Positions 969-60,046 of a stretch of DNA of 64,000 bases are shown piece by piece. How positions within the stretch are numbered: position 1 is the stretch's first letter; every line of letters starts with the position of its first letter. Origin of the DNA: an uncultured candidatus Brocadiaceae bacterium (GTDB taxonomy: Bacteria > Planctomycetota > Brocadiia > SM23-32). Where the stretch lies: assembly GCA_964434535.1 (NCBI GenBank), contig CAYSWA010000003.1, positions 20,985 to 84,984 on the forward strand, read 5' to 3'. The position numbers and the translations under genes were made by a program. A model generated the notes under the pieces. That model made no database searches. It was not told the DNA's origin and worked only from the letters and a program-made list of their open reading frames with translations.

Positions 969-1024
969 GACTTTTCCCGGCTGGTCCCACGCGTCATGGC
1001 TCGCGCCGGGCGCCCGCGAGGAGC

Positions 1025-2951: not shown

Positions 2952-2957
2952 CGCCGC

Positions 2958-3025: not shown

Positions 3026-3044
3026 CCGTTGCCGCGCGCCCCGC

Positions 3045-44221: not shown

Positions 44222-44709
44222 GGCTCGTCTCCCGGGCCGGCGGCCGGCTCGGCGATCTGGTCCAGAGGCAGCACGAGAAGCTCGACCCCCGCCTGGCGCA
44301 GCATCTGGCGGGCCAGGCCGTCGGGGTAGTCCACGGCGGCCACCACGCGCGTGATGCCGGTGTTGATGAGCATCTTCGAGCAGAGGCTGCACGGCACCAG
44401 CGTGCTGTAGAGCGTGGCGCCCTGCATGGGCACGCCGTGGCGGGCGCCCTGGAGCAGCGCGTTCATCTCCGCGTGCATGCCGCGGCAAAGCTCGTGGCGT
44501 TCGCCGCTGGGCACGCCGAGCTCCTCGCGCAGGCAGCCGGTCTCGGAGCAGTGGGGCAGCCCGCTCGGGGCGCCGTTGTAGCCGGTGGACAGGATGCGTT
44601 TGTCCGCCACGACCACGGCGCCGACGCTGCGTCGCAGGCAGGTGGAGCGCTTCGCCACCTCGCGGGCGATGCGCATGAAGTACTCGTCCCAGCTCGGCCG
44701 CCCGGTCAT
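44218..44709 (-). CDS. dCMP/cytidine deaminase family (ComEB-like)
   Basis: HAEMNAL and PCSLCSKML zinc-binding motifs. Confidence 0.85.
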
Positions 44710-45770
44710 CGCTCGCCTCCCCCGCCGAGGTGCTCGGCGATCTTCTCGGCGTCCGGCTCAGGGATGACGCCCCGCTCGGTGATGATCGCGCTGATGTTCG
44801 CCGCCGGGGTCACGTCGAAGGCGGGGTTGTAGACGCCGATGCCGTCCGGCGCCGTCGGTCGATCCCCCCAGCGGGTCACCTCGGCGGGGTCCCGCTGCTC
44901 GATCGGTATCTGGTCGCCGCTCTCCAGCGAGAGGTCGAAGGTGGAGACCGGCGCCGCCACGTAGAACGGGATGCCGTGCTCGCGGGCCAGCACGCTCAGC
45001 CCGTAGGTGCCGATCTTGTTCGCCGTGTCGCCGTTGGCGGCGATGCGGTCTGCGCCGACGATCACGGCCCCGACCCGTCCCTCGCGCATGACCTGCGCGG
45101 CCATGCTGTCGCAGATCAACGTGACGGGAATGCCGGCCTGCTGGAGCTCCCAGGCGGTCAGGCGCGCGCCCTGGAGCAGCGGGCGGGTCTCGTCCACGTA
45201 GGCGCCTACGGCCTTGCCCGCCTCGTGGGCGGCGAAGAGCACCCCGAGCGCCGTCCCGTAGTCCGCGGTGGCCAGGCCCCCGGCGTTGCAGTGGGTCAGG
45301 ACGGACTCGCCCTCGGCGAGCAGCTCGGCCCCGTTGCGCCCGATGCGGCGGCAGATCTCCCGGTCTTCCTCGGCGATCTGCCGTGCTTCCTCCAGCAGCC
45401 TTCCCTTCAGTTCGGGCGGCGCCAGGTCGGCGTTCCCGCTCCCGACGCGCTCCATCCGGTCGAGCGCCCAGAACAGGTTGACGGCGGTCGGTCGGCTGGT
45501 GGCGAGGTAGTCCTTCACCCGGCGCAGCTCAGCCATGAACTCCTCGTAGCTCGCCGCCTCGACGTCCTGGACGCCGAGCACCAGCCCCATCGCCGCCGCC
45601 ACGCCGATGGCCGGCGCCCCGCGCACCTGGAGCGTGCGGATCGCCTGCCAGACGGCCTCGGGCGTCTCGCAGCGCGCATAGGCCAGCTCGCCCGGCAGCC
45701 GCGTCTGGTCGATCAGCTCGACCCGCCCGCCCAGTCCGCCCACCCATCGGATCGTCTCAACGGGGCTCAT
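44706..45770 (-). CDS. mtnA: S-methyl-5-thioribose-1-phosphate isomerase (eIF-2B alpha/beta/delta family)
   Basis: [39 protein letters not shown]. Confidence 0.9.
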
Positions 45771-45810
45771 ACGGTTCCTCAGGCGAGAGCGAGATCGATC
45801 ACACGATTCC

Positions 45811-47037
45811 CTACGCCCCGAACTTGTCCAGCAGCCCCGCGTTCGCCAGCATCAGCGGCAGCAGGTACATCGCGCGGAAGATCCCCAGCCCGCCCGCGTT
45901 GCACTCGGTCTCGGTGAAGCGCAGCCGCCCGTCCGAGCCCGAGCGCGGCGAGTGCAGCAGCAGCGGCACCGGATGCCAGCTATGCAGCTTCATGGGGCAG
46001 GGGGTGGAGTGGTCGCCGGTGACGGCCAGCACCTCCGGGCCGCCCTCCATCAGCATGGGCAGGGCGGCGTCGACCGCCTCGATGGCCTCCACCTTCCGCT
46101 CGTGCGCGCCGTCCTCGCCGGCCTCGTCGGTCGGCTTGACGTGGATGAAGAAGTAGTCGTAGTCCTCGCGGCGGTCCAGGAAGGTGCCGAACTCCTCCTC
46201 GATCGACTGGCCCGTGTCCAGCAGGTCCATGCCGACCAGGCTCGCCAGGCCGCGATACATGGGGTAGGTCGCGATCGCGCCGCAGCGCATCCCGAAGCGC
46301 TCCGGCACGCCGGCGATGTCCGGCCGCTGGCTGATGCCGCGCGTCATGACGCCGTTGATCGGCTCGCCGCCGCTCAGGGCCTGCTGCGCCTGCCGGACGA
46401 ACTGGTTGACGATCCGCGCCGTCTTCTCGGCGGCCTCGGTCTCCGGCTCGGCCTCGTGGAGCGGCTCGCCGTCCTGGTGGGGGTCGGTGTCGGTGACGCC
46501 TTCGGCGAGGCCGGGGCCGCGGAAGATGACGCCGAAGCGGTGCCCCTTGCCGGCGGCCATGATGACCTCGACGTCCTCGATGCGCCCGATCTTCTCCTGG
46601 AGGCGCTTCACCTTCTCGGCGCTGACCTCGGTCTCGGGTCGGCCGGCGCGGCGGTCGGTCACGATGCCGTTCTCGATGGTGCAGAAGTTGGCCCGCGCGG
46701 CCACGTCGCCGGGCTTGAGCGGCATGCCCATGCCGACCACCTCCATGACGCCGCGCCCGATCTCGACCCGGCGCGGGTCGTAGCCGAACAGCCCCAGGTG
46801 GGCCGGCCCGCTGCCGGGCGTGATGGCGTAGTCGACGGGGAGGATGCGCCCGAGGGCGCTCCTGGCCGCCAGGGCGTCCAGGTTCGGGCACTGGGCCTCT
46901 TCCAGCGGCGTGCGGAAGCCGTTGTCCGGGTGGCGGATGTCGCCCACGCCGTCCATCACCAGCAGCACCAGCTTCTTGCCGCTCTCGCGGACTTCGTGGC
47001 GCTTGACCAGCTCCTCGGCGATCTTGATGCCGTGCAT
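45811..47037 (-). CDS. apgM: cofactor-independent phosphoglycerate mutase, archaeal-type (ApgM)
   Basis: LLVMDGVGD, ITPGSGPAHLGLFGYDP, GDHSTP motifs of the apgM family. Confidence 0.85.
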   Translation of the reverse strand: MHGIKIAEELVKRHEVRESGKKLVLLVMDGVGDIRHPDNGFRTPLEEAQCPNLDALAARSALGRILPVDYAITPGSGPAHLGLFGYDPRRVEIGRGVMEVVGMGMPLKPGDVAARANFCTIENGIVTDRRAGRPETEVSAEKVKRLQEKIGRIEDVEVIMAAGKGHRFGVIFRGPGLAEGVTDTDPHQDGEPLHEAEPETEAAEKTARIVNQFVRQAQQALSGGEPINGVMTRGISQRPDIAGVPERFGMRCGAIATYPMYRGLASLVGMDLLDTGQSIEEEFGTFLDRREDYDYFFIHVKPTDEAGEDGAHERKVEAIEAVDAALPMLMEGGPEVLAVTGDHSTPCPMKLHSWHPVPLLLHSPRSGSDGRLRFTETECNAGGLGIFRAMYLLPLMLANAGLLDKFGA

Positions 47038-47078
47038 CGGTGCGGTTCTCCCTGGGGATGGCCTCCGGGGGAAAGGCC

Positions 47079-47107
47079 ACTATAGCCCCGCCGCGCGGGG
47101 CTGTCAA
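47079..47107 (-). promoter_or_regulatory. sigma70-like promoter TTGACA-N17-TATAGT (minus strand) for apgM
   Basis: rc(47102-47107)=TTGACA, rc(47079-47084)=TATAGT. About 42 nt upstream of the ATG at 47037. Confidence 0.5.
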
Positions 47108-47117
47108 AGCAGCGGGC

Positions 47118-47171
47118 GGCGACGGCGTGGAACCGCAGATGAACGCGGATAGACGCGGATTGCGGCGCGGG
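47118..47171. repeat. 54-bp iteron-like repeat R1 (GGCGACGGCGTGGAACCGCAGATGAACGCGGATAGACGCGGATTGCGGCGCGGG)
   Basis: Identical 54-mer at 48699-48752. Contains three 10-bp-phased direct repeats (CGCAGATGAA / CGCGGATAGA / CGCGGATTGC). Abuts the apgM promoter. Confidence 0.7.
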
Positions 47172-47293
47172 GCAGGCAGTGGCCAGTACGCGTTTGGAGG
47201 TTCTTCTCCCCATGGTTTGCCGTTCTCAGCGTTCTCTGCGCGAGCCAGACCGCAACGGCAGAGCAAGAGCATGAGCGAGATGGAGGGCCGTCA

Positions 47294-47329
47294 CTTCATC
47301 CTTCATCCTTCCCCTTCATCCTTTCCTCC
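47294..47329. repeat. pyrimidine-rich heptamer tandem repeat (CTTCATC)x3-4
   Basis: CTTCATCCTTCATCCTTCCCCTTCATCCTTTCCTCC in the 5' region of the gene starting at 47391. Confidence 0.6.
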
Positions 47330-47390
47330 GCGTGCTTTGCGGTGAAGATCGCCGTTGCGTTGGGGCGTCTGTTTTGCTCAGATGGGCGAT

Positions 47391-48647
47391 ATGAGCGAGA
47401 CGACGACCGACGCGATCACCGATGCCGAACGGACGGTCCTGCGGGGGCTGGCCGAGCGCGTGCGCGAGATCGCGGCGCTGCCGGTGATGGAGGAGCGCCG
47501 CCGGATCTGGAAGCGCCACAACGCCCTCCGGCCCGGTCGGCCGATGGTCCTCGTCTTCCCCGAGGGCGCCTGGGGCGAGCTGCTGCCCGGCTCCGAGCTG
47601 GCCTGCGAGGGCGAGCTTGCCCGCTCCTTCGAGCGGGACCTGCGCAGCCGCATCTTCTACCACGAGCGGCTCCAGGACGATACGGTCATCGAGGACGCGC
47701 TCGTCATCCACAAGGCCGTGCGCAGCAGCGGCTGGGGGCTCTCCCCGCGCTACATCCCCAGCACCGAGGAGCGCGGCGCCTGGGCGTTCGATCCCGTCCT
47801 GCACGAGCGCTCCGACCTGGCGAAGCTCCACGCCCCGGAGATCAGCGTCGATGAGGAGGCGACCGCCCGCAGGCTCGAGATCGCCGAGGACCTCTTCGGC
47901 GACATCCTCGACGTGCGCCTCAAGGGCGTCGACCACGTCTCGTTCCACCTGACGAGCCAGCTCTGCAACCTGCGCGGGCTGGGGAACGTGATGATGGACA
48001 TGGCGGCCGAGCCGGGCTTCGTCCACGAGGCGATGGCGATCCTGGAGGAGGGCAACCGCGGCCTGGTCGAGCAGTACCGGGCGCTCGACCTGCTCAGCCT
48101 CAACAACGACGGCACCTACCACAGCTCGGGCGGGGTCGGGTATACGGACGAGTTGCCGCGCGAGGACTTCGACGGGCGCGTGCGGCCGTGCGACATGTGG
48201 GCATCGGCCGAGTCGCAGGAGCTGGCCCAGGTCTCGCCGGCGATGCACGCAGAGTTCGCCCTCGACTACGAGAAGCGGCTGCTCGCCCCGTTTGGGCTGA
48301 ACGGCTACGGCTGTTGCGAGGACCTGACGCGCAAGCTCGACGACGTGCTGGCGATCCCGAACATCCGGCGCATCTCGATCGCGCCCTCGGCCGACGTGGC
48401 GGCCTGCGCCGAACGGCTCGGCGGGCGCTGCATCTTCTCCTGGAAGCCGAAGCCTCAGTATCTGGTGGGAGAGTTCGCGCCGGAGAGGATACGCGCCGAC
48501 ATCCGGCGCACGATCGAGATCGCGCAGGCCAACGGCTGCGTGCTGGAGATGATCCTGAAGGACACGCACACCTGCGAGGGCCGCCCGGAGCGCTTCACCG
48601 CCTGGACCCGGATCGCCCGCGAGCTGGTCGAGGGGGCCTCGCGCTGA
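47391..48647 (+). CDS. hypothetical protein (possible URO-D/methyltransferase-like TIM-barrel enzyme); function unassigned
   Basis: 418 aa, protein-like composition. Weak resemblance to the uroporphyrinogen-decarboxylase-family fold. Start at MSETTTD. Confidence 0.5.
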   Translation: MSETTTDAITDAERTVLRGLAERVREIAALPVMEERRRIWKRHNALRPGRPMVLVFPEGAWGELLPGSELACEGELARSFERDLRSRIFYHERLQDDTVIEDALVIHKAVRSSGWGLSPRYIPSTEERGAWAFDPVLHERSDLAKLHAPEISVDEEATARRLEIAEDLFGDILDVRLKGVDHVSFHLTSQLCNLRGLGNVMMDMAAEPGFVHEAMAILEEGNRGLVEQYRALDLLSLNNDGTYHSSGGVGYTDELPREDFDGRVRPCDMWASAESQELAQVSPAMHAEFALDYEKRLLAPFGLNGYGCCEDLTRKLDDVLAIPNIRRISIAPSADVAACAERLGGRCIFSWKPKPQYLVGEFAPERIRADIRRTIEIAQANGCVLEMILKDTHTCEGRPERFTAWTRIARELVEGASR

Positions 48648-48698
48648 CCGCGCGGCTGACGTGGCCGACGGGGACGACCCCCCGCGGCCTCAAGCCAC

Positions 48699-48752
48699 GG
48701 CGACGGCGTGGAACCGCAGATGAACGCGGATAGACGCGGATTGCGGCGCGGG
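48699..48752. repeat. 54-bp iteron-like repeat R2 (identical to R1)
   Basis: Exact 54-nt match to 47118-47171. Downstream of the 47391 gene and upstream of GH4. Confidence 0.7.
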
Positions 48753-48818
48753 CAACGGCGGAGATGCTGGCAGCCGTCAACCGAGAACCGATAACTGACA
48801 ACCGCCGTTCCCGCCGTC

Positions 48819-48858
48819 ATCCGTGATCTGCGTGTATCTGCGTTCATCTGCGGTTCCC
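48819..48858. repeat. inverted diverged partial copy R3 of the iteron repeat
   Basis: rc = GGGAACCGCAGATGAACGCAGATACACGCAGATCACGGAT, about 85% identical to the R1/R2 core. Again three ATCTGCG-type 10-bp repeats. Confidence 0.6.
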
Positions 48859-48945
48859 TCCGACTCCCCGGCACGTGCGGGGGGCGGGCCGCGCAGTTAT
48901 CCTGTGCATCCCTGTTACCCGCGCCGTTTGCCCGCGAGGTGAGCC

Positions 48946-50295
48946 ATGGCTGACGTGAAGGTGGCCCTGATCGGCGCCGGGAGCCGCAGCTTCGGCCCCG
49001 GCACCGTGCGCGACGTGCTGCTGAGCGAGCCCCTCCGCGAGCGGGGCGTCGAGCTGGCGTTGATGGACATCAGCAAGAAGCACCTGGCCGACTCGGCCGA
49101 CTACGCCCGCCGGGCCGCCGAGCGGCTCGACCACCCCGCCCGGATCACGGCCACCACCGACCTGTGCGAGACGCTGGACGGGGCCGACTTCGCCGTCGCC
49201 GCCATCGAGGTCGACCGCTTCCTCTACTGGGCGATGGACTTCCACGTGCCGCGCAGCCACGGCTTCCGCCAGGTCTTCGGCGAGAACGGCGGCCCCGGGG
49301 GCATCTTCCACGCGCTGCGCAACATGGGGCCGATGGTCGAGATCGGGCGCGCCATGGAGCAGCTCTGCCCCGAGGCCGTGCTGCTCAACTTCACCAACCC
49401 GGAGCACAAGCTCTGCGAGGCGCTCACCCGCCTGAGCTCGACCCCGACCGTCGGCCTCTGCCACGGCTACTTCATGGGCCGGGAGCAGCTCGCGCGCATA
49501 CTCGCGGTGGAGCCCGAGGAGCTGGACGCCGTCGCCTGCGGCATGAACCACTTCACCTGGTTCCAGTCGATCCGCGACCGGGCCAGCGGGGAGGACCTCT
49601 ACCCCCGGCTGCGCGAGGCCGAGCGCGAGGGCGAGTGGCTGCACGACTGGCACGAGATCGCCCTGGCCCGCGTGCTGCTGCGCCGGTTCGGGCTCTGGCC
49701 CTCGCCGGCGGCGAACCACTACGGGGAGTACATCGGCTGGGCCGAGGAGTTCGTCGCCGACGAGATGCAGTTCTTCTACGACCCGGCCGAGGGGCAGCCG
49801 TGGGAGACGGGCGAGGTGCCCGAGTTCGTCTACTCCCTGAGCCAGGGCCCGCACCAGCGCTCCTGGCGCCGGCCCGCCGATGCCACGCCCGTGGAGGACG
49901 ACGAGACACCCCTGAAGCCCTCCGGCGAGCTGGCCGTGCCGATCATGGAGGCGCTCGCCTGCGGCCTGGAGCGTGACCTGCCGGCGGTCAACGTGCCGAA
50001 CAAGGGGACGATTCCCAACCTGCCCGACGACATGGTCGTCGAGGTGCCGGCCACGGGCGACGCCGAGGGCCTGCACCCGGTGCAGTGCGAGCCGCTGCCC
50101 GAGCCGATCGCGGCGATGCTCCGCGTGCAGGCGAGCATCCACCGGCTCATCGTCGAGGCATTCGCCGAGGGCTCGCGCGACAAGCTGATCCAGGCCGTGC
50201 TGCTCGACCCGGTCGTGGACGGCTACCGCCGGGCGGTCGAGATGGTGGACGAGATGCTCCGGCTCCAGGCAGACATCCTGCCGCCGCTGGGTTGA
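48946..50295 (+). CDS. glycoside hydrolase family 4 (NAD+/Mn2+-dependent alpha-glucosidase/galactosidase-like)
   Basis: KVALIGAGSRSFG Rossmann N-terminus, NFTNP, CHGY, GMNHFTWF motifs of GH4. Confidence 0.85.
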   Translation: MADVKVALIGAGSRSFGPGTVRDVLLSEPLRERGVELALMDISKKHLADSADYARRAAERLDHPARITATTDLCETLDGADFAVAAIEVDRFLYWAMDFHVPRSHGFRQVFGENGGPGGIFHALRNMGPMVEIGRAMEQLCPEAVLLNFTNPEHKLCEALTRLSSTPTVGLCHGYFMGREQLARILAVEPEELDAVACGMNHFTWFQSIRDRASGEDLYPRLREAEREGEWLHDWHEIALARVLLRRFGLWPSPAANHYGEYIGWAEEFVADEMQFFYDPAEGQPWETGEVPEFVYSLSQGPHQRSWRRPADATPVEDDETPLKPSGELAVPIMEALACGLERDLPAVNVPNKGTIPNLPDDMVVEVPATGDAEGLHPVQCEPLPEPIAAMLRVQASIHRLIVEAFAEGSRDKLIQAVLLDPVVDGYRRAVEMVDEMLRLQADILPPLG

Positions 50296-50540
50296 GGGCG
50301 GCACGCCTTCGGCCGCAGAGCGGGCAGGGGAAGGCCAGCAGCAGGTTGAAGGCGGGAGGATGAGGGACGAAGTGACGGCTTCCCGCTCGTCCTCGTCGTG
50401 GTTCTTCTCGCCGTCTTCGGTGACCTGCGAGCCTCCGTGGTGAACCACGCCGCCGCCGGGGCGTATAGTTGCGCCGGGCGCGCCGGTGCGCCAGAATGGC
50501 GGGGCTGGCCTGATCCCATCTGAGCGAAGAGATAGGCGCG

Positions 50541-51902
50541 ATGAGAGGCGAGCTGCTCGAGCTGTGCCAGAAGCTGCCGGCCGACTACGCCGAGGTGCGC
50601 GTGCAGGAGGGCACGTCCACCAGCATCCAATACGCGGGCCGGGAGCTGGAAGACATCGGCGAGCGCACCGGCCGGGGCGGCTGCGTCCGCGTGCTCAAGG
50701 ACGGCGGCTGGGGGTTCGCCACGTTCAACGACCTGGGCCGCATCGAGCAGTACGCCCGCATGGCGCTGCGCCAGGCGGAGCTGGTCCAGGGCCACCCGTT
50801 CGGGCTGGCGCCGGTCGAGCCGGTGCAGGCGACGTACCGCACCGAGGTCGAGTGCGACCCGGCCGACGTGCCGCTCGAAGAGAAGCAGCGGATGTGCCAC
50901 CGCTACAACCGGGCCATCCTCGCCAACGAGCGCGTCCAGACCAGCATCGTCGTCTACCGCGACAGCCGGGCGAGCACCTACTACGCCAACTCCGACGGGG
51001 CCTGCATCGAGCAGCAGTACGCCTTCTGCGGGGCGCTGGTCGGGGCGATCGCCGTCGAGGGGGCGAACATCCAGCGCGCCTTCGAGTCGGTCGGCGACCT
51101 GCGCGGCTACGATAAGGTGGCCGCGATGGACGAGGACTGCGAGAAGGCCGTGCGCCGGGCGGTGGAGTCCCTGGAGGCCAGGCCCGTCGAGGCCGGCGCC
51201 TACACCGTGATCGTCGACCCCAGGCTCTGCGGCGTCTTCGTCCACGAGGCATTCGGGCACCTGAGCGAGTCGGACTTCGTCTACGAGAACCCGCGCCTGC
51301 AGGAGATCATGAAGCTCGGGCGGCGCTTCGGGCCGCAGGTCCTCAACATCACCGACGATGGCTCGATGGCCGGCGAGGCCGGCTTCGTCGCCTACGACAG
51401 CGAGGGCGTGCCCGGCTCGCGCACGCCCCTGGTCAAGGACGGCGTCCTGGTGGGCCGCCTGCACAACCGCGAGACGGCCGCCAAGATGGGCGAGGAGCCG
51501 ACGGGCAACGCCCGCGCCATCTCCTACCGCCACCAGCCCATCGTGCGCATGACCAACACCCTCATGGAGCCGGGGGAGACGAGCTTCGAGGAGATGCTCG
51601 CCGAGACCCCGGACGGCATCTACGCCGTGGGCATGCTCGGCGGGCAGACCAACATGGAGATGTTCACCTTCAGCGCCGAGGAGGCATACCGCATCCGCGA
51701 CGGCCGGGTCGCCGAGAAGGTCCGCGACGTGGTCCTGACCGGCAACGTGTTCAAGACGCTCCAGAACATCGACCGGGTCGGCAGCGACTTCAAGATGCAC
51801 GGCGGCCTGGGCGGCTGCGGCAAGGGCGGCCAGAGCCCCCTGCGGGTCGGCGACGGCGGGCCCCACTGCCGCATACGGGACGTGGTCATCGGCGGGCGGT
51901 GA
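50541..51902 (+). CDS. tldD: TldD-family zinc metalloprotease
   Basis: HEAFGH zinc motif, GGxGxC-containing C-terminus (GGLGGCGKGGQ). 453 aa. Confidence 0.9.
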   Translation: MRGELLELCQKLPADYAEVRVQEGTSTSIQYAGRELEDIGERTGRGGCVRVLKDGGWGFATFNDLGRIEQYARMALRQAELVQGHPFGLAPVEPVQATYRTEVECDPADVPLEEKQRMCHRYNRAILANERVQTSIVVYRDSRASTYYANSDGACIEQQYAFCGALVGAIAVEGANIQRAFESVGDLRGYDKVAAMDEDCEKAVRRAVESLEARPVEAGAYTVIVDPRLCGVFVHEAFGHLSESDFVYENPRLQEIMKLGRRFGPQVLNITDDGSMAGEAGFVAYDSEGVPGSRTPLVKDGVLVGRLHNRETAAKMGEEPTGNARAISYRHQPIVRMTNTLMEPGETSFEEMLAETPDGIYAVGMLGGQTNMEMFTFSAEEAYRIRDGRVAEKVRDVVLTGNVFKTLQNIDRVGSDFKMHGGLGGCGKGGQSPLRVGDGGPHCRIRDVVIGGR

Positions 51903-51955
51903 TCCGCTCGTCCTCGTCGTCGTCCTCGTTCTCGTCCTCGAAGGCGAGAGGGATC

Positions 51956-52474
51956 ATGCTGGACCACGAGAAACTGGATGTCTACCAGGCGGAACTGCGA
52001 TTCATGGCGTGGACCAACACGCTCCTTAACGAGCTGGAGGGGGGCTGTGCGCGAAGCGTTGCGCACATTGTCGATCATCTGCGACGAGCCAGCCTGAGCG
52101 CGCTGCTGAACACGGCCGAAGGCAACGGGAAGCGACAGAGGCCCGTGCGTGCGCGGTTCTTCGACGACGCGCGGGGTTCCGCCGCCGAGTGCGCCGCCTG
52201 TCTGGACGCACTTGTCAGCATCAGCGCCGTGGACGCCGGACGCGTCGCAGAGGGGAAGGACCTGGTTGTCCGCATCGTTTCCATGCTGACGAAGCTCGTA
52301 AGCCTTTACTCAGCGCGTCAGGGTCGAGTGCGGGAGAACGGTGCCCCGTACGATCTGGATGCCGAATGCCTTGCCCATGTGGACGCGGCTGGGCCGGCAC
52401 GGCTGGACGAGGACGACGACGAGGACGACGACGAGCGGGTCAACTCACCTGATTCCCGTGGAAGAAGGCAATGA
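51956..52474 (+). CDS. four-helix-bundle protein (23S rRNA intervening-sequence / Avd-like family) with acidic C-terminal tail
   Basis: Starts MLDHEKLDVYQ (family N-terminal pattern), about 120-aa helical core, then DEDDDEDDDE tail. GAGAGGGA RBS. TGA overlaps the tldE ATG (ATGA). Confidence 0.7.
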   Translation: MLDHEKLDVYQAELRFMAWTNTLLNELEGGCARSVAHIVDHLRRASLSALLNTAEGNGKRQRPVRARFFDDARGSAAECAACLDALVSISAVDAGRVAEGKDLVVRIVSMLTKLVSLYSARQGRVRENGAPYDLDAECLAHVDAAGPARLDEDDDEDDDERVNSPDSRGRRQ

Positions 52475-53787
52475 ACGACGGCATCGCTGAACGCATCCTG
52501 GCGGCGGCCGCCGCGCGGTTCGACGCCGCCGAGCTCTACGAGGAGAGCGGCGAGTCCGTCTCGGTCAGCTTCGACGACAACCGCCTCAAGGAGATCATCA
52601 CGCGCCAGACCCACGGCGTGGGCCTGCGCGTGATCCACCGGGGGCGCATCGGGTTCGCCGCCACCAGCGACCTGCGCGACGCCGACCGCCTGCTCGATAT
52701 GGCCGAGGCGAGCGCCGCCTACGGCGACGAGGCCAGGTTCGAGCTTCCGCCGCATCCGGTCGACCTGCCCGACGTCGAGACCTACGACGAGGCCGTGCTC
52801 GGCGTCGGCGCCGAGCAGATGACGGCGATGGGCCGCGAGGCCCTGGCGATGAGCCGCGAGGCGAACGACGACTACCTCTACGGCTGCGGGCTGACGCGCT
52901 CGGCCGGCGCCTGCCGCATCCTCAACACGGCGGGCCTCGCCGTCGCCTACAGCTCCACCAGCATGTCGGGCCACGTCGGCGTCCAGCTCGTCAGCGACGA
53001 CGGCCTGCTTCAGGTCTACGAGTACAAGAGCTGGAGCCGGCCGTTCGAGAGCGTCACCGACCTGGCCCGCACCGTGCTGCGGAAGATGGCCGCGGCCCGG
53101 ACCATCGTGCCCGCCCGCCTGGAGGCGATGCCGATGGTCTTCACGCCGAAGGCGCTGGGCAACCTGTTCGGCCCGCTCGGCATCGCGCTCAACGGCAAGC
53201 ACGTCCACAAGGGCAGCTCCGTGCTGGCCGGCCGCATCGGCGAGCAGGTGCTCGACCCCCGGCTGACGATCACCGACGACCCGACCGTGCCCTTCGCGCC
53301 GGGCACTTGCCCGGTCGACGACGAGGGCCTGCCCGCGCGGCGCCAGCACCTGTTCCAAGCGGGGGTGCTCAGGACCTACATGACCGACCTCCAGACGGCC
53401 GCCCTGCTCGGGGTGGAGCCGAGCGGCCACGCCTCGCGCAGCTACTCCAGCCGGCCCGCCCCCTCGCCGACCAACGTCATCGTGGGTGAGGGCGATGCCT
53501 CCTACGACGAGATGGTGGCGGGCATGGAGCGCGGGCTCATCATCGAGCAGACGCTCGGCGCGGGCCAGAGCAACGTGCTCGCCGGCGAGTTCAGCGTCAA
53601 CGTCGAGCTCGGCTTCCTGGTCGAGGACGGCCAGGTGCGCGGGCGGGTCAAGGACTGCATGGTCGCCGGCAACGTCTACGAGGTGCTCGCGCGCGTCGAG
53701 GCGATCGGCAGCGAGCCGGCCTGGCTCGGCAGCCGCTGCGCCCCGCCGCTGATGGTCGGCGGGCTCAAACTCGCCGCGCAGGGATAG
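52471..53787 (+). CDS. pmbA: TldE/PmbA-family protein (partner of TldD)
   Basis: PmbA/TldE fold; lacks HExxH. Conserved GxGxS-like and C-terminal GG motifs. Translationally coupled to the preceding gene. Confidence 0.85.
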   Translation: MNDGIAERILAAAAARFDAAELYEESGESVSVSFDDNRLKEIITRQTHGVGLRVIHRGRIGFAATSDLRDADRLLDMAEASAAYGDEARFELPPHPVDLPDVETYDEAVLGVGAEQMTAMGREALAMSREANDDYLYGCGLTRSAGACRILNTAGLAVAYSSTSMSGHVGVQLVSDDGLLQVYEYKSWSRPFESVTDLARTVLRKMAAARTIVPARLEAMPMVFTPKALGNLFGPLGIALNGKHVHKGSSVLAGRIGEQVLDPRLTITDDPTVPFAPGTCPVDDEGLPARRQHLFQAGVLRTYMTDLQTAALLGVEPSGHASRSYSSRPAPSPTNVIVGEGDASYDEMVAGMERGLIIEQTLGAGQSNVLAGEFSVNVELGFLVEDGQVRGRVKDCMVAGNVYEVLARVEAIGSEPAWLGSRCAPPLMVGGLKLAAQG

Positions 53788-53841
53788 GAGACGATCCCGC
53801 TCGTCGTGCTCGTGGTGTCGTCGTGGTGAGGGAAGGCCGTG

Positions 53842-54660
53842 ATGGATGAGGGCGACTGGCTCGATCGCATCCACTGCGAGGACTGCCTGACCGGGATGCG
53901 CCGGCTCCTGCCCGACGAGTCCGTCGACGTGATCGTCACCTCCCCGCCTTACAACATCGGCGTCGCCTACGACGCTCACGACGATAACATGCCCCTGAGC
54001 GAGTACCTGGACTGGATCGGCGAGGTGGCCGCCCAGTGCCGCCGCGTGCTCAGGCAGGACGGCTCGTTCTTCCTCAACGTCGGGGACCGGCCGTCGGACG
54101 AGCTGCGCTCGCTGCGCGTGGCCGAGCGGGCCATCGGCGCCGGACTGCGGCTCCAGAACACGATCCACTGGATCAAGTCCATCGCCGCGCCCGAAGAGGG
54201 CGTCAACATGGGCCACTACAAACCGGTCAACAGCCCCCGCTTCCTGAACAACGGACACGAGTTCATCTTCCACCTCACGCGCACCGGCTCGGTGGGGCTG
54301 GACAAGCTCGCCGTCGGCGTCCCTTACCAGGACAAGAGCAACATCGGCCGCTGGAAGTCGGCCCGGCGGGACTGCCGCGACCGGGGCAACACGTGGTACA
54401 TCCCCTACGAGACGGTGACCGGGGCCAAGCCGCACCCGGCGGCCTTCCCCGAGAGGCTGCCCGAGATGTGCATCCGCCTCCACGGGCTGCGGCCGGGCCT
54501 GGCGGTGCTCGACCCCTTCCTGGGCACGGGCGCGACGGCCCTGGCCGCCCGCCGGCTCGGCTGCCGCTGGGTCGGGTTCGAGGTAAGCAGCGAGTACGCG
54601 GCCGAGGCGCGCCGGCGGCTCGCCCGCGTGGCGAGCGAGACCGGCCTCTTCCCCACCTGA
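53842..54660 (+). CDS. beta-class DNA methyltransferase (N4-cytosine or N6-adenine), apparently orphan
   Basis: TSPPY (motif IV) near the N-terminus and FLGTGAT (motif I) near the C-terminus: the beta-class order. 272 aa. No nuclease gene nearby. Confidence 0.8.
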   Translation: MDEGDWLDRIHCEDCLTGMRRLLPDESVDVIVTSPPYNIGVAYDAHDDNMPLSEYLDWIGEVAAQCRRVLRQDGSFFLNVGDRPSDELRSLRVAERAIGAGLRLQNTIHWIKSIAAPEEGVNMGHYKPVNSPRFLNNGHEFIFHLTRTGSVGLDKLAVGVPYQDKSNIGRWKSARRDCRDRGNTWYIPYETVTGAKPHPAAFPERLPEMCIRLHGLRPGLAVLDPFLGTGATALAARRLGCRWVGFEVSSEYAAEARRRLARVASETGLFPT

Positions 54661-54754
54661 GCCGCGTGCGGACCCCTTGCGCGGCGCCAGCGGCCCGACT
54701 ACCATGCCGGCCGGCGAATCCGCGTTCTTACCGAACACGAAGGGGAGGGGCACG

Positions 54755-55471
54755 ATGCTGATGGAAGGGAAGGTCGCGCTGATCACCGGGGCGAACCGCG
54801 GGCTGGGGCGCGCGCTCTGTAAGGCGCTCGCCGAGCGGGGCGCCACGGTGCTGATGGTCTGCCGCGACGAAGAGGCCGGCGCCGAGGCCGCGCGCCGGCT
54901 CTGGGAGCGCGAGCTCGACGTCGCCCTCCACGTCGCCGACGTGGCGAGCATCAGCGACATCGAGCGGCTCTACGACGAGGTCTCGGCCAAGTTCGACCGG
55001 CTCGACGCGCTGGTCAACAACGCGGGGGTGAACCTGGACGAGGCCGACACCACCATCGAGACGCTGCCGCTGGCCACGCTGGAGATGACGCTGGACATCA
55101 ACTTCCGCGGGCCGGTCTGGCTCTGCCGCATGTTCCTGCCGCTGCTGAAGCGCTCGCAGTCCGGCCGCATCATCAACTACACCTCGGGGCTCGGCCGGCT
55201 CACCATCGAGCAGGCGGGCAGCTACCCCGCCTACAGCATGTCCAAGACGGCGATCAACGCGCTGACCAAGGTGCTGGCGGCGGAGGTGGAGGCGGACGGC
55301 ATCATCGTCAACTCGGTCGATCCGGGCTGGTGCCGGACGGACCTGGGCGGCGCCGGCGCGCCGCGCCCGGTCGAGGAGGGGATCACCGCCGCCCTCTACC
55401 TGGCCACGGCCGACGCGGGCGAGCTCCAGACCGGCTGCCTCTACTACGACCGCGAGGTCATCAGCTGGTAG
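54755..55471 (+). CDS. SDR-family oxidoreductase (carbonyl-reductase-like)
   Basis: ITGANRGLGRA, NNAG, YSMSKTA (YxxxK). GGGGAGGGG RBS. Confidence 0.85.
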   Translation: MLMEGKVALITGANRGLGRALCKALAERGATVLMVCRDEEAGAEAARRLWERELDVALHVADVASISDIERLYDEVSAKFDRLDALVNNAGVNLDEADTTIETLPLATLEMTLDINFRGPVWLCRMFLPLLKRSQSGRIINYTSGLGRLTIEQAGSYPAYSMSKTAINALTKVLAAEVEADGIIVNSVDPGWCRTDLGGAGAPRPVEEGITAALYLATADAGELQTGCLYYDREVISW

Positions 55472-55500
55472 GGGGGGTGCTGCAGTGCTCTGCTCACGCG

Positions 55501-55529
55501 TTGACACCGGGGATGCCGTGCATTACATT
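55501..55529 (+). promoter_or_regulatory. candidate promoter TTGACA-N17-TACATT in the 250-nt leader upstream of smpB
   Basis: Perfect -35. No tmRNA-like sequence found in this gap. Confidence 0.3.
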
Positions 55530-55721
55530 GTGCAGTCCAGCACGTGCTGCTACTGGTGGATTCTGCCGCCGATCTCGTTCGTGGTGCAGCCCGTCGTCGG
55601 CAACGTGGCGGGCGACACCCGCTGACTCAGGCGTCCGGCGCGACCCCCGGCCGGCTCGCGCTGGCCCGACGCCGTCCCGCCCCGCATAGCTCGCGCCCCG
55701 GGCCTTGCCCGTGGAGCCGCC

Positions 55722-56189
55722 GTGAAGCCACGCGAAGCCAACATCCAGCCGGTCGCGCGGAACCGCCGCGCCCTGCGCGACTTCGTCATCGAGGAGACCT
55801 ACGAGGCGGGCATGGAGCTGGTGGGCACCGAGGTGAAGAGCCTGCGCAACGGCAACTGCTCCCTGGCCCAGGCATACGCCCGCCCGCGCGGCGAGGAGCT
55901 CTACCTGATCGACGTGCACATACCGCCCTACGAGCAGGGCAACATCCAGAACCACGAGCCGACCCGCCCCCGCAAGCTGCTGCTGCACCGGCGCGAGATC
56001 GACCGCATCATCAGCCAGTGCACGCAGCGCGGCTACACGCTGATCCCCCTGCGCGTCTACTTCAAGGACGGCTACGCGAAGGTGGAGATCGGCCTGGCGC
56101 GCCGGCGGCAGAAGTGGGACAAGCGCCAGAAGAAGGAGGCCGAGCAGCGCCGCAAGGACGCCCGCGACGCCCTGCGCCGCCGCCGGTGA
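55722..56189 (+). CDS. smpB: SsrA-binding protein
   Basis: RRALRDFVIEETYEAGMELVGTEVKSLR, KLLLHRREI and basic C-terminal tail. GTG start. Confidence 0.9.
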   Translation: MKPREANIQPVARNRRALRDFVIEETYEAGMELVGTEVKSLRNGNCSLAQAYARPRGEELYLIDVHIPPYEQGNIQNHEPTRPRKLLLHRREIDRIISQCTQRGYTLIPLRVYFKDGYAKVEIGLARRRQKWDKRQKKEAEQRRKDARDALRRRR

Positions 56190-56205
56190 AGACAGACGGC
56201 GCCTG

Positions 56206-57168
56206 TCAGGTGTCGTTGCCGTCGCGCAGGTCCAGCCAGGCGGCTTCCTCGTCGCTCAGGTCCAGGTAGAGCGCCTCGATGTTCTCCTCCAGCTCGCGCC
56301 GGCTCATGCAGCCGACCAGGGGGAAGACGTTCAGGCCCAGGCTCATCACGTAGGCCATCGCGACCTGGGGCACCGTGACGCCGCGCCGCTGGGCCAGCTC
56401 GCGGGCGCGGTCCAGGCGGCGGAAGTTCCGTTCGTGGGCGAATCCCCGGCGGGCCGCCTCGTCGAGCACTTCCTCGTAGTTCTCTCGCGTGACGCGGCCC
56501 GAGAAGAGCCCCCGCGCCAGGCTCGACCAGGCGAAGACGGGCATCTGGCTGGCGCGGTACCATTGCCGCGCATCGCGGCCCTGCGGCCCGCCGATGCTCA
56601 GGCATCCGCCCCAGGGCTCGCCGACCTGCTCGGCGAGGGTAAGGTTCGGGCTGCTGGCGGTGAAGGGCGTGAGGCCGTGCTCGGCGGCGTAATCGTTCGC
56701 CTCCTGGATGCGCTGGTGCGACCAGTTCGAGCCGCCGAAGGCGTTGATCAGCCCGGCCGCCAGGTGCCGGTTGAGCACCTCCACGATGGGCCCGACCGCC
56801 GCGCCCGCATCGTCGCGGTGCAGCATGTAGAGGTCGATGTAGTCGGTGGCGAGCCGCTCGAGCGAATCGTGCAGGTCGGAGGTGATGCACTCGGGGTTGA
56901 CGCGCGGCTCGCCGTAGGGATGGGCGCCCTTGCCCAGGATCATGACCTGCTCGCGCACGCCGCGCTCGGCGATCCATCGCCCCAGCGTCCTCTCGGTGTC
57001 CTCGCCGTAGACGTGCGCCGTGTCGAAGGCGTTCGCGCCGAGCGCGTAGACGTCGTCCAGCAGCCCGAACGTGCCCTCCAGGTCCTTGGAGTTGACCATC
57101 ATCGTGCCCATCACCAGCCGCGAGATGGGCTTCTGGATGCCGGGCAGCTCTGCGTGCTTCATCTCCAT
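56206..57168 (-). CDS. aldo/keto reductase
   Basis: AFDTAHVYG, YIDLYMLHR, GGSNW motifs. Start at MEMKHAELPG; the upstream 330 R-rich codons of the ORF are rejected. Confidence 0.85.
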   Translation of the reverse strand: MEMKHAELPGIQKPISRLVMGTMMVNSKDLEGTFGLLDDVYALGANAFDTAHVYGEDTERTLGRWIAERGVREQVMILGKGAHPYGEPRVNPECITSDLHDSLERLATDYIDLYMLHRDDAGAAVGPIVEVLNRHLAAGLINAFGGSNWSHQRIQEANDYAAEHGLTPFTASSPNLTLAEQVGEPWGGCLSIGGPQGRDARQWYRASQMPVFAWSSLARGLFSGRVTRENYEEVLDEAARRGFAHERNFRRLDRARELAQRRGVTVPQVAMAYVMSLGLNVFPLVGCMSRRELEENIEALYLDLSDEEAAWLDLRDGNDT

Positions 57169-57200
57169 CGGTTCGGCTCCTGTGTGCGGTCGGGTGTTTG

Positions 57201-58184
57201 CTACTCGAAGGGGTATTTCAGGCCCCACTGCTGGCGGACGCTGTCCATCGTGCGCGCGATGGACAGCGATTCGCTCGGCGGCATCACCGCGCTTTCGGTC
57301 ATGCCGGCGCGCAGGCACTGCATCACCTCGGCCGCCTCGCACTGGTAGCCGTTGCCCTCGTAGGGCAGCTCCATCTCCTGCTGCTCGCCGTCGGAGGGGA
57401 CCACGGTGAGCCGGTCGGTCTTCCAGAAGGGGTGGTGGAGGCGGATGTAGCCGTCGGTGCCGGCGATGACGGCCTCGTGCGGCACGAAGGTGCGCACGGC
57501 GCAGGACAGCACGCCGAGGCGGCCGCCGGAGTGCTTGATGAGGATGGCGGCCTGCTCGTCGACGCCGGTCTCGCCGATGTGGGCCAGCGAGGCGACCTCC
57601 TCCGGTGGGCCCCCGTAGATCATCGAGGCGAGCGCCAGCGTGTAGCCGCCGACGTCGAGCAGCCCGCCGCCGGCCAGCTCGGCGTTGAGCAGGCGGCCCT
57701 CGGGGTTCCATCCGGTGCGGAAGCAGAAGTCGGCCTTCACCATGCGCACCTGGCCGATGACCCCTTCGGCGAGCAGCTCGCGCAGGCGCACGATCGCCGG
57801 CAGGAAGCGCGTCCACACCGCCTCCATCAGGAACAGCCCTTCCTCGCGCGCGCAGTCGATCAGCTTCCCCGCCTGGCGGGCGTTGACCGTGAGCGGCTTC
57901 TCGCAGAGCACGGCCTTGCCCCCGCGCAGGCAGAGCATGCTGTCCCGCAGGTGCATCGGATGGGGAGTGGCCACGTAGACGACGTCGACCTCGGGGTCGT
58001 CGGCCAGGTCTTCGTAACTGGGGTGGGCTCGGGCGACCTCCCAGCGCTCGGCGAACTGCTCGGCCGTCTCGCGGGCGCGGGAGCCGACGGCGACCAGCTC
58101 CGCCTCGTCCAGGTAGCTGAGCCCTTCGGCGAACTTCGCGGCGATGTGGCCGGTGCCGAGTATCCCCCATCGGATCGGCTCCAT
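57201..58184 (-). CDS. Gfo/Idh/MocA-family oxidoreductase
   Basis: IRWGILGTGHIA Rossmann, EKPL, dimerisation/C-terminal domain. Confidence 0.85.
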   Translation of the reverse strand: MEPIRWGILGTGHIAAKFAEGLSYLDEAELVAVGSRARETAEQFAERWEVARAHPSYEDLADDPEVDVVYVATPHPMHLRDSMLCLRGGKAVLCEKPLTVNARQAGKLIDCAREEGLFLMEAVWTRFLPAIVRLRELLAEGVIGQVRMVKADFCFRTGWNPEGRLLNAELAGGGLLDVGGYTLALASMIYGGPPEEVASLAHIGETGVDEQAAILIKHSGGRLGVLSCAVRTFVPHEAVIAGTDGYIRLHHPFWKTDRLTVVPSDGEQQEMELPYEGNGYQCEAAEVMQCLRAGMTESAVMPPSESLSIARTMDSVRQQWGLKYPFE

Positions 58185-58194
58185 GGTCTTCCTC

Positions 58195-59379
58195 CTATTC
58201 GGTGGGTAAGGCGTCGCGTTGACTGTGTATCAGCTCGATCAAGTGCGCGTCCTGCTCCGGGTCGAGCCGGCAGTGGCGGGTGAGCACCTCGTCGAAGCCC
58301 AGATCGGTCTCGCCGCTGCGGCGCGCGACGGCCACGGCCATGGCCAGGCCGGCGGCGAACGCGCGGGGCTCGATGCCCTCTGCGGCGACGGTGCGCACGC
58401 CGTGCACGAGCCGTTCCCAGGGCTTCAGCTTGCGCATGATGCCCCGTGTGCCCCTCGCCACGCTGTCGCGGAAGACCGGGCAGGTCACGCGCCGGAACAC
58501 GAAGTCGCAGTAGTTCAGATAGACGCTGCGGTTCAGCGCCCCGCCGTGCTTGCCCAGCAGCGCCGGCGCGGCCTCGCCGTAGAGCAGACGGCGCCCGAGG
58601 GCCATCGCCTCGGGCTCGGAGGTCAGCTCATGGAGCGACCCTCGGCCCCGCAGCCTGCCCCAGCAGGCGAGCACGCAGTGCAGGCCGTTGTGCGTGAGCA
58701 GCTTCGCCTCTTCGAGGGCGCGGAAGCGCTCCGGCGGGTGGCCCTCCACGGCCTGCGGCACGGCGGCCAGGCCCTCCAGGGCGTGCTGCTCGGCGTGGAT
58801 GCCGAAGAACGGGTCGGCCAGCACGGCCCAGTCCAGCCCGGGCGCAACCGGCCGCAGCGGCGGCTCAGGGTCGGCCACCACCTTGGCCGCCCGTCCCATC
58901 ATCGTGTCGGCGACGATGAGCCGGTTGCCCAGGTGCTCTGCGGCTTCGCGCTCCACGGCCGCGCGCAGCTTCTCGGCGATGCCCAGGCCGTTCTCCCCGC
59001 AGAGCACGCGCAGGGGGCGGCCCGGCGAGCGCGCGCCCGCCGCGCCGGCCAGCACGGGGCCGAGCTCGGCCAGGTGCGGCTCGCCGACGACGGTGAAGAC
59101 GAGGTCCGCCCCGGCCAGCGCGGCGAGGGCCTCGTCGGTGACCGAGCCCGGCTCCTTCCAAAGCCCGCCCCCGACCTGCACGCTCAGGGAGTGGACGGCG
59201 GGGCCCGTGCGGTTGAACGCATAGGAGCGTTCGCAGGCCAGGTGCGCGATCAGATCGGCCTTGGGCGGGATGTCGACGTAGGTGAGCCGGCAGTCCCGGC
59301 CCAGCTCGGGACCGAGGAAGCCGAGCCCGAGGGCGCCGGCGCCGAAGACGACGCACTCGATGGCGGGCTTCTCGCTCAC
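58195..59379 (-). CDS. mannitol dehydrogenase-family protein (mannitol-1-phosphate 5-dehydrogenase-like)
   Basis: VVFGAGALGLGFLG (compare MtlD ALHFGAGNIGRGFIG), VLCGENG, LLTHNGLHC. GTG start at VSEKPAIE. Confidence 0.65.
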   Translation of the reverse strand: MSEKPAIECVVFGAGALGLGFLGPELGRDCRLTYVDIPPKADLIAHLACERSYAFNRTGPAVHSLSVQVGGGLWKEPGSVTDEALAALAGADLVFTVVGEPHLAELGPVLAGAAGARSPGRPLRVLCGENGLGIAEKLRAAVEREAAEHLGNRLIVADTMMGRAAKVVADPEPPLRPVAPGLDWAVLADPFFGIHAEQHALEGLAAVPQAVEGHPPERFRALEEAKLLTHNGLHCVLACWGRLRGRGSLHELTSEPEAMALGRRLLYGEAAPALLGKHGGALNRSVYLNYCDFVFRRVTCPVFRDSVARGTRGIMRKLKPWERLVHGVRTVAAEGIEPRAFAAGLAMAVAVARRSGETDLGFDEVLTRHCRLDPEQDAHLIELIHSQRDALPTE

Positions 59380-59405
59380 GGCGTTCTCGCGGGGAGGGGC
59401 AGGTC

Positions 59406-59972
59406 TCACTCGTCGGGCAGGCGGCCGCCCTGGGCGCGGCGGGCCATGTAGAGCAGGGCCTCGCCGACCTCGTCGGTGCGGATCAGCGGGCGCCAGGGCA
59501 GCAGCCAGACGCCGAACCAGTTCGTCCACCACCACTGGGGATGGCGGTCCATCAGGATCTCCCGTCCCGAGCCGTCTTCCATGCCCGGCAGGCCGACGCC
59601 CGGCCTCAGGCGCAGGTAGAGGTCATAGTGGTAGGGCCCGATGGTGCCCGCGGTGAGCAGGGGGGCGGCGAGCGAGGCCGGCTCCCAGCGCAGGTAGACG
59701 GCCTCGATGTCCCTGAAGCGGATGCGGCGCAGCCGGTAGCCGCCGAGGCCGCCCCCCGAGCCGGAGCCGTAGACGTCGAGGAAGTAGTCGTCGGTGACCA
59801 GCGCATCGTCGACGATGACGGCGCCTCGGGAGTGGACCTGGTCCCACTGGAACTCGAGGATCACGCGTCGGGCCTCGGGCGGCGTCCAAGTGCGCCCCGA
59901 CCGGGGGACGTAGGTGCAGCCCAGGGCGGCCAGGCAGAGCAGGGCGATCGCGGGCGGCCTTGCGCGTGCCAT
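59406..59972 (-). CDS. hypothetical lipoprotein
   Basis: Signal peptide with lipobox LAALGCT; Trp-rich C-terminus. No recognisable domain. Confidence 0.5.
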
Positions 59973-60046
59973 GCCTCTCGCTCCTCGGTTCGGGTCGGCT
60001 CGGGCCTCACGCCGCCGGGTTGGTCGGCGTCCACTGCCCGCCTCGG

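Follow-up and report, generated by a model that had tools for sequence, protein, structure and literature searches.

A hairpin-bounded gene for a four-helix-bundle protein between tldD and tldE of an uncultured Brocadiaceae bacterium resembles the intervening sequences of 23S rRNA

The closest known counterparts of the element analyzed here, which lies between tldD and tldE in a 64,000-nt (64-kb) stretch of the genome of an uncultured Candidatus Brocadiaceae bacterium (contig CAYSWA010000003.1 of assembly GCA_964434535.1, positions 20,985 to 84,984; hereafter, the window), are the intervening sequences (IVSs) of 23S rRNA that carry an open reading frame (ORF), known as S23p, in Coxiella burnetii, Leptospira, Xanthomonas and Brucella. 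The Coxiella IVS is 428-444 nt long, with terminal repeats that form a 28-bp stem, the S23p ORF in the loop and an RNase III cut midway along the stem; its GC content is lower than that of the host, and it is apparently horizontally acquired and sporadic among relatives (PMC4990558). The function of the ORFs within 23S rRNA IVSs is not known, and the Coxiella results suggest that S23p is not made (PMC4990558). The respective protein family, PF05635, often adjoins the reverse transcriptases of diversity-generating retroelements (DGRs) (PMC10053308), and Avd, the DGR accessory protein, binds structured RNA around the DGR template (bioRxiv 10.1101/2023.10.23.563531).

The element in the window consists of a long inverted repeat and, within it, a gene for a protein of this same family. 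By its sequence, this cassette is one member of a large family that occupies operon spacers of Planctomycetota, Verrucomicrobiota and their relatives. We consider it probable that the middle gene is a horizontally acquired hairpin cassette, inserted in the sense orientation in the tldD-tldE spacer and standing outside the TldD/E system, because its composition is foreign, the corresponding sites in relatives are empty, and the same cassette recurs in unrelated contexts with conserved arms. The features of the locus are as follows.

50541..51902, plus strand: tldD, the upstream host gene (453 aa; Pfam PmbA_TldD_1st/2nd/3rd; NCBIfam TldD; GC content at third codon positions, GC3, 0.98)
51900..51940, no strand: left, pyrimidine-rich arm of the inverted repeat, TGATCCGCTCGTCCTCGTCGTCGTCCTCGTTCTCGTCCTCG (repeat search, RNA fold and control scores)
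51946..51953, plus strand: purine-rich, Shine-Dalgarno-like GAGAGGGA, three bases before the ATG of the middle ORF (sequence)
51956..52474, plus strand: the middle ORF, encoding a four-helix-bundle protein (23S rRNA IVS protein or Avd fold) of 172 aa (PF05635, TIGR02436, AlphaFold, Foldseek)
52405..52442, no strand: right, purine-rich arm, GGACGAGGACGACGACGAGGACGACGACGAGCGGGTCA, inside the ORF, where it encodes ...LDEDDDEDDDERV
52443..52470, plus strand: native tldE leader with GGAAGAAGG, resembling a ribosome-binding site (RBS) (read from the sequence)
52471..53787, plus strand: tldE/pmbA, the downstream host gene (438 aa; Pfam PmbA_TldD_1st/3rd; GC3 0.97)

The two arms of the inverted repeat (51900-51937 and 52405-52442) are 38 nt long and 87% complementary, with a 22-nt perfect core, and enclose the ORF; in the minimum-free-energy fold of 51880-52480, the whole ORF is closed by a stem of ~27 bp. 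Under one fixed scoring scheme for the repeat and its controls, the inverted repeat scores 23, compared to a median of 10 and a maximum of 16 at 305 other window positions of the same geometry. Long GAC/GAG triplet runs are found nowhere else in the 64-kb window. The first-pass annotation, made from the sequence, overlooked the inverted repeat and took the acidic DEDDDEDDDE tail of the middle-ORF protein for an unusual feature of the protein. That view has to be abandoned: the tail is the right arm read in frame, and in relatives the arm is translated as TRTRTR or as RGRGRG, or else falls past the stop codon. The other elements noted there, namely the four-helix-bundle gene that separates tldD from tldE, the RBS-like GAGAGGGA and the ATGA overlap with tldE, are all present, and purine patches like GAGAGGGA also precede the start codons of tldD, tldE and the methylase gene downstream of tldE.

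The middle ORF runs from the ATG at 51956 to a stop codon ending at 52474, and its product begins MLDHEKLDVYQ.... The assignment to the 23S-rRNA-IVS/Avd-like family, for which the first-pass annotation had proposed a profile search, is borne out by scores above the cut-offs for both PF05635 (23S_rRNA_IVP; 49.5 bits, cut-off 33.8) and TIGR02436 (44.5 bits, cut-off 24). The AlphaFold (AF2) model, built on 22 homologues, comprises helices at residues 4-30, 33-58, 62-88 and 94-123, with a predicted local distance difference test (pLDDT) above 90, and a disordered tail at residues 124-172 (pLDDT 50-63); the core of the protein thus corresponds to codons 1-123 (51956-52324) and the tail to codons 124-172. 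The core is mildly basic (pI 8.6), and the whole protein is acidic solely through the translated arm. The best Foldseek matches are 2GSC (XCC0516) and 2RLD (BT_0352), followed by Avd (4DWL/8UB7), with target-length-normalised template-modelling (TM) scores of 0.8-0.89; for the top pair, the TM score is 0.84-0.89 and the root-mean-square deviation (rmsd) is 1.6-2.0. In a sequence search of solved structures, 2GSC is the sole match.

The likeness to the ORF-bearing IVSs extends from the protein family (PF05635, with the fold of 2GSC and 2RLD, and an S23p-family ORF in the loop) to the size of the element (~540 nt here vs. 428-444 nt in Coxiella), the stem formed by terminal repeats (~27 bp predicted here), a GC content below that of the host and a sporadic distribution among relatives. 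The differences are equally distinct: the window cassette lies between two protein genes and not in 23S rRNA helix 9, 25 or 45; its arms consist of conserved triplet repeats, which the ORF often includes and translates; and its protein is under strong purifying selection, whereas S23p of Coxiella is, by the results of PMC4990558, apparently not made. The cassette is therefore IVS-like in architecture yet is not an IVS, lacking the defining rRNA location.

Several lines of evidence indicate that the cassette was inserted between two host genes that originally adjoined each other. The GC3 of the middle ORF is 0.74, compared to 0.82-0.99 in the 51 resident genes called in the window, and the GC content dips locally at the cassette from ~0.72 to 0.61-0.68. 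The closest TldE relatives (65-73% identity) come, where named, from Planctomycetota or Brocadiia, and in several of the related loci the two genes are separated by a short spacer: 93 nt in L089, where the next gene after tldE is, as in the window, the N6_N4 methylase gene, 29 nt in L090, and 43 nt in L092 and L093 (the TldE proteins of L089, L090 and L092 are 68-73% identical to that of the window). In a broader metagenome survey, the tldD-tldE gap measures -10 to 197 nt in 26 of the 33 loci with a measurable gap, and relatives of the window subfamily of four-helix-bundle proteins are found in none of these 33 loci; the three-gene arrangement, which the first-pass annotation had suggested surveying in related genomes, is not universal.

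The boundaries of the insert can be placed approximately. The TGA stop codon of tldD (51900-51902) forms the first three bases of the left arm, and homology between the window and the empty-site loci extends to this stop codon. On the other side, the window tldE leader (…CGTGGAAGAAGGCAATG) resembles the leaders of L089 (...CGTGGGGAGAGATCAATG) and L091 (...ACGTGAGGGAACGCAATG). Taken together, the homology up to the tldD stop and the native-like tldE leader imply an insert of ~540 bp, from about 51903 to ~52445, with approximate ends because the spacers of the relatives are too diverged for global alignment to the empty sites. The middle ORF runs on through the native tldE leader, which accounts for its last ~10 codons, and its TGA (52472-52474) overlaps the tldE ATG (52471-52473) as ATGA because the ORF reads through the right arm into this leader. 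An identical tldD/ORF/tldE junction is present in an independent Logan assembly (run SRR7048218, locus L001). The best NCBIfam match of the tldD product is the archaeal-type TldD.

The cassette recurs, with its arms, in many other genomes. A protein search yielded 3130 matches, the best of them ~60% identical over the 130-residue core, with variable tails. From a scan of one genome per species, we collected 80 related loci, mostly in metagenome-assembled genomes (MAGs) of Verrucomicrobiota, Planctomycetota, Lentisphaerae and Kiritimatiellales, whereas a few others bear the labels Desulfobacterales, Acidobacteria or Eremiobacterota. In these loci, the scores of the best inverted repeat spanning the ORF have a median of 19.5 and an interquartile range of 15-25.5, compared to a median of 9 and a 99th percentile of 12 in geometry-shifted controls (n = 432). 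Almost without exception, the upstream arm reads TCGTCCTCG… and the downstream arm …CGAGGACGA, that is, triplet repeats of the type (TCGTCC/TCGTCG)n ... (GACGAG/GACGAC)n, often ending AATCG…/…CGATT. The right arm lies within the ORF in 55 of the 80 loci, spans the stop codon in 5 and is located 3' of the stop in 20, and when translated it reads as acidic (21 loci), TR/SR (15) or RG (2), which are the three frames of one DNA repeat. Hence it is the nucleic-acid repeat that is conserved and not an acidic tail. Similarly, the poly-Ser N-terminal extensions of some database proteins are the left arm translated in frame.

Clustering by flank similarity resolves the 80 loci into 29 distinct contexts. 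The two largest are the spacer between the E2 acyltransferase and E3 dihydrolipoamide dehydrogenase genes of a 2-oxoacid dehydrogenase (25 genomes) and that between the genes for a MoxR AAA+ ATPase and a DUF58 protein (13 genomes); others include LeuA/shikimate dehydrogenase, a response regulator and its kinase, GT9 heptosyltransferase/MurJ, OEP/multicopper oxidase, DUF6785/M28-FtsX protein and a position upstream of a SpoU methylase. TldD or TldE is encoded within 3 kb in none of the 80 loci, all of which encode close relatives of the protein. No rRNA is detected by Rfam in the window or in any of the 29 contexts, and no reverse transcriptase was found among the examined flanking genes of the related loci. 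We considered whether the related loci could be true rRNA IVSs, given the 70-87% identity of the flanks over 2.7 kb among 25 of them, and rejected this possibility: by Pfam, these flanks are the E2 and E3 genes, and Rfam identifies no rRNA. Counted per context, the cassette runs in the direction of both neighbors 18 times and against both once; the per-locus count (49 vs. 1) was noisy and pseudo-replicated and was redone per context, and the crude ORF calling that underlies the orientation count could, through its errors, only dilute the bias. Together with the foreign codons and the absence of the gene from the spacers of relatives, the 29 unrelated contexts support one of the two explanations originally offered for the arrangement, the insertion of a small selfish cassette.

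The protein itself is a real, selected and functional product, because median dN/dS is 0.07 and 0.11 (dS 1.3-1.9) in two large orthologous clusters and the protein alignment contains 38 invariant columns. Two variants of the protein deserve mention. P0002 and P0003 (297-299 aa) are tandem fusions of two four-helix-bundle units of the window subfamily. In L077, from ~2998, the four-helix-bundle ORF continues in frame into the downstream histidine kinase gene to yield a 573-aa reading frame, so right-arm read-through can fuse the cassette protein to a host gene.

The same arms and termini also occur as short ORF-less hairpins, at L013 1815-1867 and L027 5586-5670, in L011 and L035, and on both flanks of the L016 gene. 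In L064, a 35-nt arm with a genome-specific signature, ATCGTCCTCGTCCCTCGTTCTCGTCGTCGTCCTCG, occurs six times (with 0-4 substitutions) at 560-3892, within 6.4 kb; one of these copies is the left arm of the ORF-bearing cassette and several form ORF-less hairpins, which suggests that the L064 arms have proliferated within the genome. A permissive scan for the arm pattern over-called in high-GC DNA and served only to flag hairpins for direct inspection.

Sequences similar to the arms are also present on both sides of the window tldD-tldE locus.

50340..50430, no strand: hairpin in the GH4-tldD spacer, the 3' half of which (50383-50419) is a 37-nt copy of the left arm
53797..53830, no strand: weak arm-like pyrimidine stretch CCGCTCGTCGTGCTCGTGGTGTCGTCGTGG after tldE (3 mismatches), resembling L091 hairpin ends ...GTGTCGTCGTGG

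The left-arm copy in the first hairpin is 78% identical to the arm and includes an exact 17-mer, CCGCTCGTCCTCGTCGT. More generally, in this lineage the GH4-tldD and tldE-methylase spacers contain long imperfect purine-first hairpins ending ...GTGTCGTCGTGG (window 50340-50430 and 53797-53830; L091 520-760 and 4830-5040).

Given the coexistence of ORF-bearing and ORF-less hairpins, REP/REPIN elements with RAYT genes ('REPtrons') and miniature inverted-repeat transposable elements (MITEs) are the natural terms of comparison. As in REPtrons, the gene is located between inverted copies of a palindromic repeat, many ORF-less copies occupy spacers, copies lie mostly between co-directional genes, and sequence variants are genome-specific (PMC3733652). 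The ORF-bearing and ORF-less hairpins resemble master and derivative copies, as in RAYTs and REPs, without a recognisable transposase. The cassette protein, however, is a helical bundle with no HUH/Y1, nuclease or transposase motif, and the arms are triplet repeats of 20-50 nt in place of the GTAG- or CGTC-tagged palindromes of 20-40 bp. The CGTC-tagged REPs, considered as a possible match to the arms, are different elements, reported from other phyla and described as short palindromes, not triplet-repeat arms (PMC3733652). Compared to insertion sequences and MITEs, the cassette possesses terminal inverted repeats, but a transposase is absent from both the element, the sole ORF of which is the four-helix-bundle gene, and the window. 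A phage or defence origin was likewise considered and rejected: the middle-ORF protein has 0 PADLOC and 0 PHROG matches, and no viral contigs match.

Related tldD-tldE spacers harbor inserts of other kinds. In L097 (2476-3000, a 525-nt gap; TldE 71% identical), a GxxExxY gene (TIGR04256, 138 bits) lies within 29 predicted long-range base pairs; this insert shares the spacer and the enclosing stem with the window cassette but encodes an unrelated protein and has the opposite, purine-first arm polarity, and it looks like a second, parallel class of hairpin-borne single-gene inserts. In L106 (322-882), the 561-nt gap contains, between arms of the (GCAGCC)n type, GGCAGCCGGCAGCCGCCAGCA / TGCTGTCGGCCGCCTGCTGCC, a gene for another four-helix-bundle protein (111 bits for TIGR02436; a weak 27 bits for NF033474, the NCBIfam Avd equivalog, with a cut-off of 80), one that is only 28% identical to the window protein. 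The spacer of L135 (2439-3000, 562 nt) is full of nested inverted repeats, with arms up to 101 nt, and contains no recognised gene. L091, which is otherwise syntenic with the window (GH4-tldD-X-tldE-methylase-SmpB), has a 1365-nt gap (2168-3460) with a 430-aa esterase-like ORF that has a signal-peptide-like N-terminus and a weak polyhydroxyalkanoate (PHA)-depolymerase/esterase match. In three more surveyed loci, the gap is 1.4-2.3 kb, and the "empty" L089 spacer folds into a small hairpin. We read the tldD-tldE spacer as a permissive or targeted landing site, not as the seat of a functional partnership, because the two four-helix-bundle inserts differ in both protein and arms and most relatives have no insert.

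A tentative scheme for the behavior of the cassette can be drawn largely by analogy with IVSs and Avd. No sigma-70-like promoter is predicted in 50200-54000, and the cassette, which has no recognisable promoter, would share the transcript of the host operon. There, the arms would pair as a duplex of ~27-38 bp, with the ORF in the loop, and this stem may be processed by RNase III, as in the 23S rRNA IVSs. Nucleic acid is a probable ligand of the protein, with the hairpin of the element itself as the most plausible one, as would be in keeping with Avd, which forms a pentameric barrel and binds structured RNA. With no stop codon ahead of the right arm, the ORF is read through into the acidic tail and the tldE leader, and ribosomes that traverse the arm and the leader as far as the ATGA would be delivered to tldE as a by-product.

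Several observations weigh against the reading of this locus as a horizontally acquired, mobile hairpin cassette. The 64-kb window contains one full copy of the cassette only, plus the 37-nt arm copy. The case for mobility is wholly distributional, with neither a target-site duplication (no direct repeat abuts the arms of the window cassette) nor a mobilising enzyme found, and no viral contig encodes a relative of the cassette protein (0 viral loci). Nothing in these data demonstrates that the arms act as RNA. RNAalifold recovers the terminal helix in 21 E2-E3 cassettes (columns 84-93 with 627-636), with a few double changes (e.g., G:C to A:U in the AT-richer L046 and L088); as the arm sequences themselves are conserved, this orthologous alignment shows modest covariation. 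Sense-strand G:U mismatches in the arms (45) are no more numerous than A:C mismatches (59), so that there is no RNA-specific signal; maintenance at the level of DNA, or mere inheritance, could account for the complementarity of the arms. A domesticated, useful module explains long vertical retention with dN/dS of ~0.1 no less well than does a purely selfish one. Finally, the L106 insert in the same spacer leaves some probability of a site-specific or functional link to this spacer.

The alternative that survives best is that of a domesticated module for RNA processing or expression, in which the relative expression of the flanking genes would be tuned both by the stem, which would be cleaved by RNase III or stabilise the transcript, and by the read-through translation, with the protein as a cis regulator of the stem. 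The retention of the cassette in the same spacer in 25 (E2/E3) and 13 (MoxR/DUF58) genomes, at saturated dS and dN/dS of 0.07-0.11, speaks for such a role, as do its location, nearly always between co-functional, co-directional gene pairs, and the frequent termination of the ORF at or just before the downstream start (the window ATGA, an overlap in L006, and the E3 starts). The window copy, however, is foreign in composition and absent from relatives, that is, a recent arrival, and the ORF-less copies, like the arm families within single genomes, have the appearance of proliferation rather than of regulation. On balance, we regard domestication as a credible but improbable explanation of the locus.

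The first-pass annotation also considered a functional partnership with the TldD/E peptidase; under this alternative, the product of the middle gene would serve the TldD/TldE metallopeptidase specifically, as an accessory subunit, a chaperone or a regulator, and would be co-translated with TldE for that reason. The position inside the operon, the ATGA overlap and the presence of a distantly related four-helix-bundle gene in the same spacer of L106 would all be expected in that case. However, 26 of the 33 related tldD-tldE pairs have no insert and the other inserts are unrelated (GxxExxY, esterase-like, nested repeats), TldD/E is nearby in 0 of the 80 close-relative loci, the GC3 of the ORF (0.74) departs from that of tldE and tldD (0.97-0.98), and the inserts in the window and L106, being 28% identical and having different arms, are independent events. 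A partnership is thus very unlikely.

The lead to a DGR fares even worse. That the protein could be an orphan or remote Avd of a DGR elsewhere in the genome is suggested by the Avd-like fold (4DWL and 8UB7, TM ~0.8) and by the frequent occurrence of PF05635 beside DGR reverse transcriptases (PMC10053308). Avd is basic, as is the core of the window protein at pI 8.6. The identity to Avd is ~12%, though, NF033474 does not match the middle-ORF protein at E <= 0.01, and both sequence and fold are nearer to the non-DGR members 2GSC and 2RLD. As the first-pass annotation had stated, there is no reverse transcriptase in the window: a scan of 53 ORFs across the 64 kb yielded 0 RVT, transposase or integrase domains. 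There is also no direct repeat resembling a template repeat/variable repeat (TR/VR) pair in 44000-60000, and no reverse transcriptase in the examined flanks of related loci. We therefore hold a remote Avd to be highly improbable. A chance ORF with a chance repeat, or an assembly chimera, has a negligible probability: spurious ORFs and repeats abound in high-GC DNA, but the hidden Markov model (HMM) scores exceed curated cut-offs, the four-helix model is confident, homologues number in the thousands, the inverted repeat beats all 305 controls, and the junction is repeated in a second assembly.

If the interpretation of the window locus as an acquired hairpin cassette is extended to the entire family, a broader scheme suggests itself, which we put forward as a speculation that is, on present evidence, rather doubtful. 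The four-helix-bundle 'IVS proteins' might be the element-encoded factors of a distinct class of hairpin elements, with autonomous members consisting of a hairpin plus gene and non-autonomous members being ORF-less hairpins. Such elements would settle wherever a transcribed site can accommodate a long stem-loop, namely in rRNA helices, as IVSs, and, far more often, in operon spacers in bacteria of the Planctomycetes-Verrucomicrobia-Chlamydiae (PVC) group. The Avd-like protein would bind its own stem and govern processing or copying to new sites, perhaps with RNA as an intermediate and with a polymerase that is supplied by the host or acts in trans.

Whatever the fate of this scheme, thousands of homologues outside rRNA are annotated merely as "four helix bundle protein", and at least one large subfamily among them keeps the full IVS architecture outside rRNA, with a long terminal stem and the ORF in the loop, combined with sequence-conserved arms, sense orientation in operons, purifying selection and ORF-less derivatives. 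A vague family label is thereby converted into testable hypotheses on RNase III processing of operon mRNAs, stem binding by the protein, and master and derivative copies. What appears to be new is the cassette architecture and the operon-spacer lifestyle across PVC bacteria; the protein family was already known. A limited full-text search, which is not proof of novelty, found no paper on hairpin-flanked four-helix-bundle cassettes outside rRNA. There is also an annotation issue, in that acidic, TR-repeat and RG-repeat tails, as well as poly-Ser N-terminal extensions, are translated repeat arms. For the TldD/E system, the finding is an ordinary one, a peptidase pair split by an insert.

Three further observations concern other parts of the window. 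Directly 3' of tldE lies a gene for an N6_N4 DNA methylase (53839-54660), without an adjoining endonuclease, which is found in the same position in L089, L091 and L092; it may encode an orphan methylase that is associated with the tldDE operon. A lower-GC island at 38481-41005 (0.62-0.69 vs. ~0.75 in the flanks) holds the only other window genes that fail the GC3 filter, one for an Eco57I-type N6 DNA methylase of 516 aa and one for a 328-aa restriction endonuclease of the BsuBI/PstI type; the two probably form a type II restriction-modification system that was acquired horizontally. Lastly, a perfect 55-nt direct repeat (47117-47171 and 48698-48752) flanks a 430-aa ORF (47355-48647) without a Pfam match; the unit at 47117-48752 may be another inserted or duplicated one.

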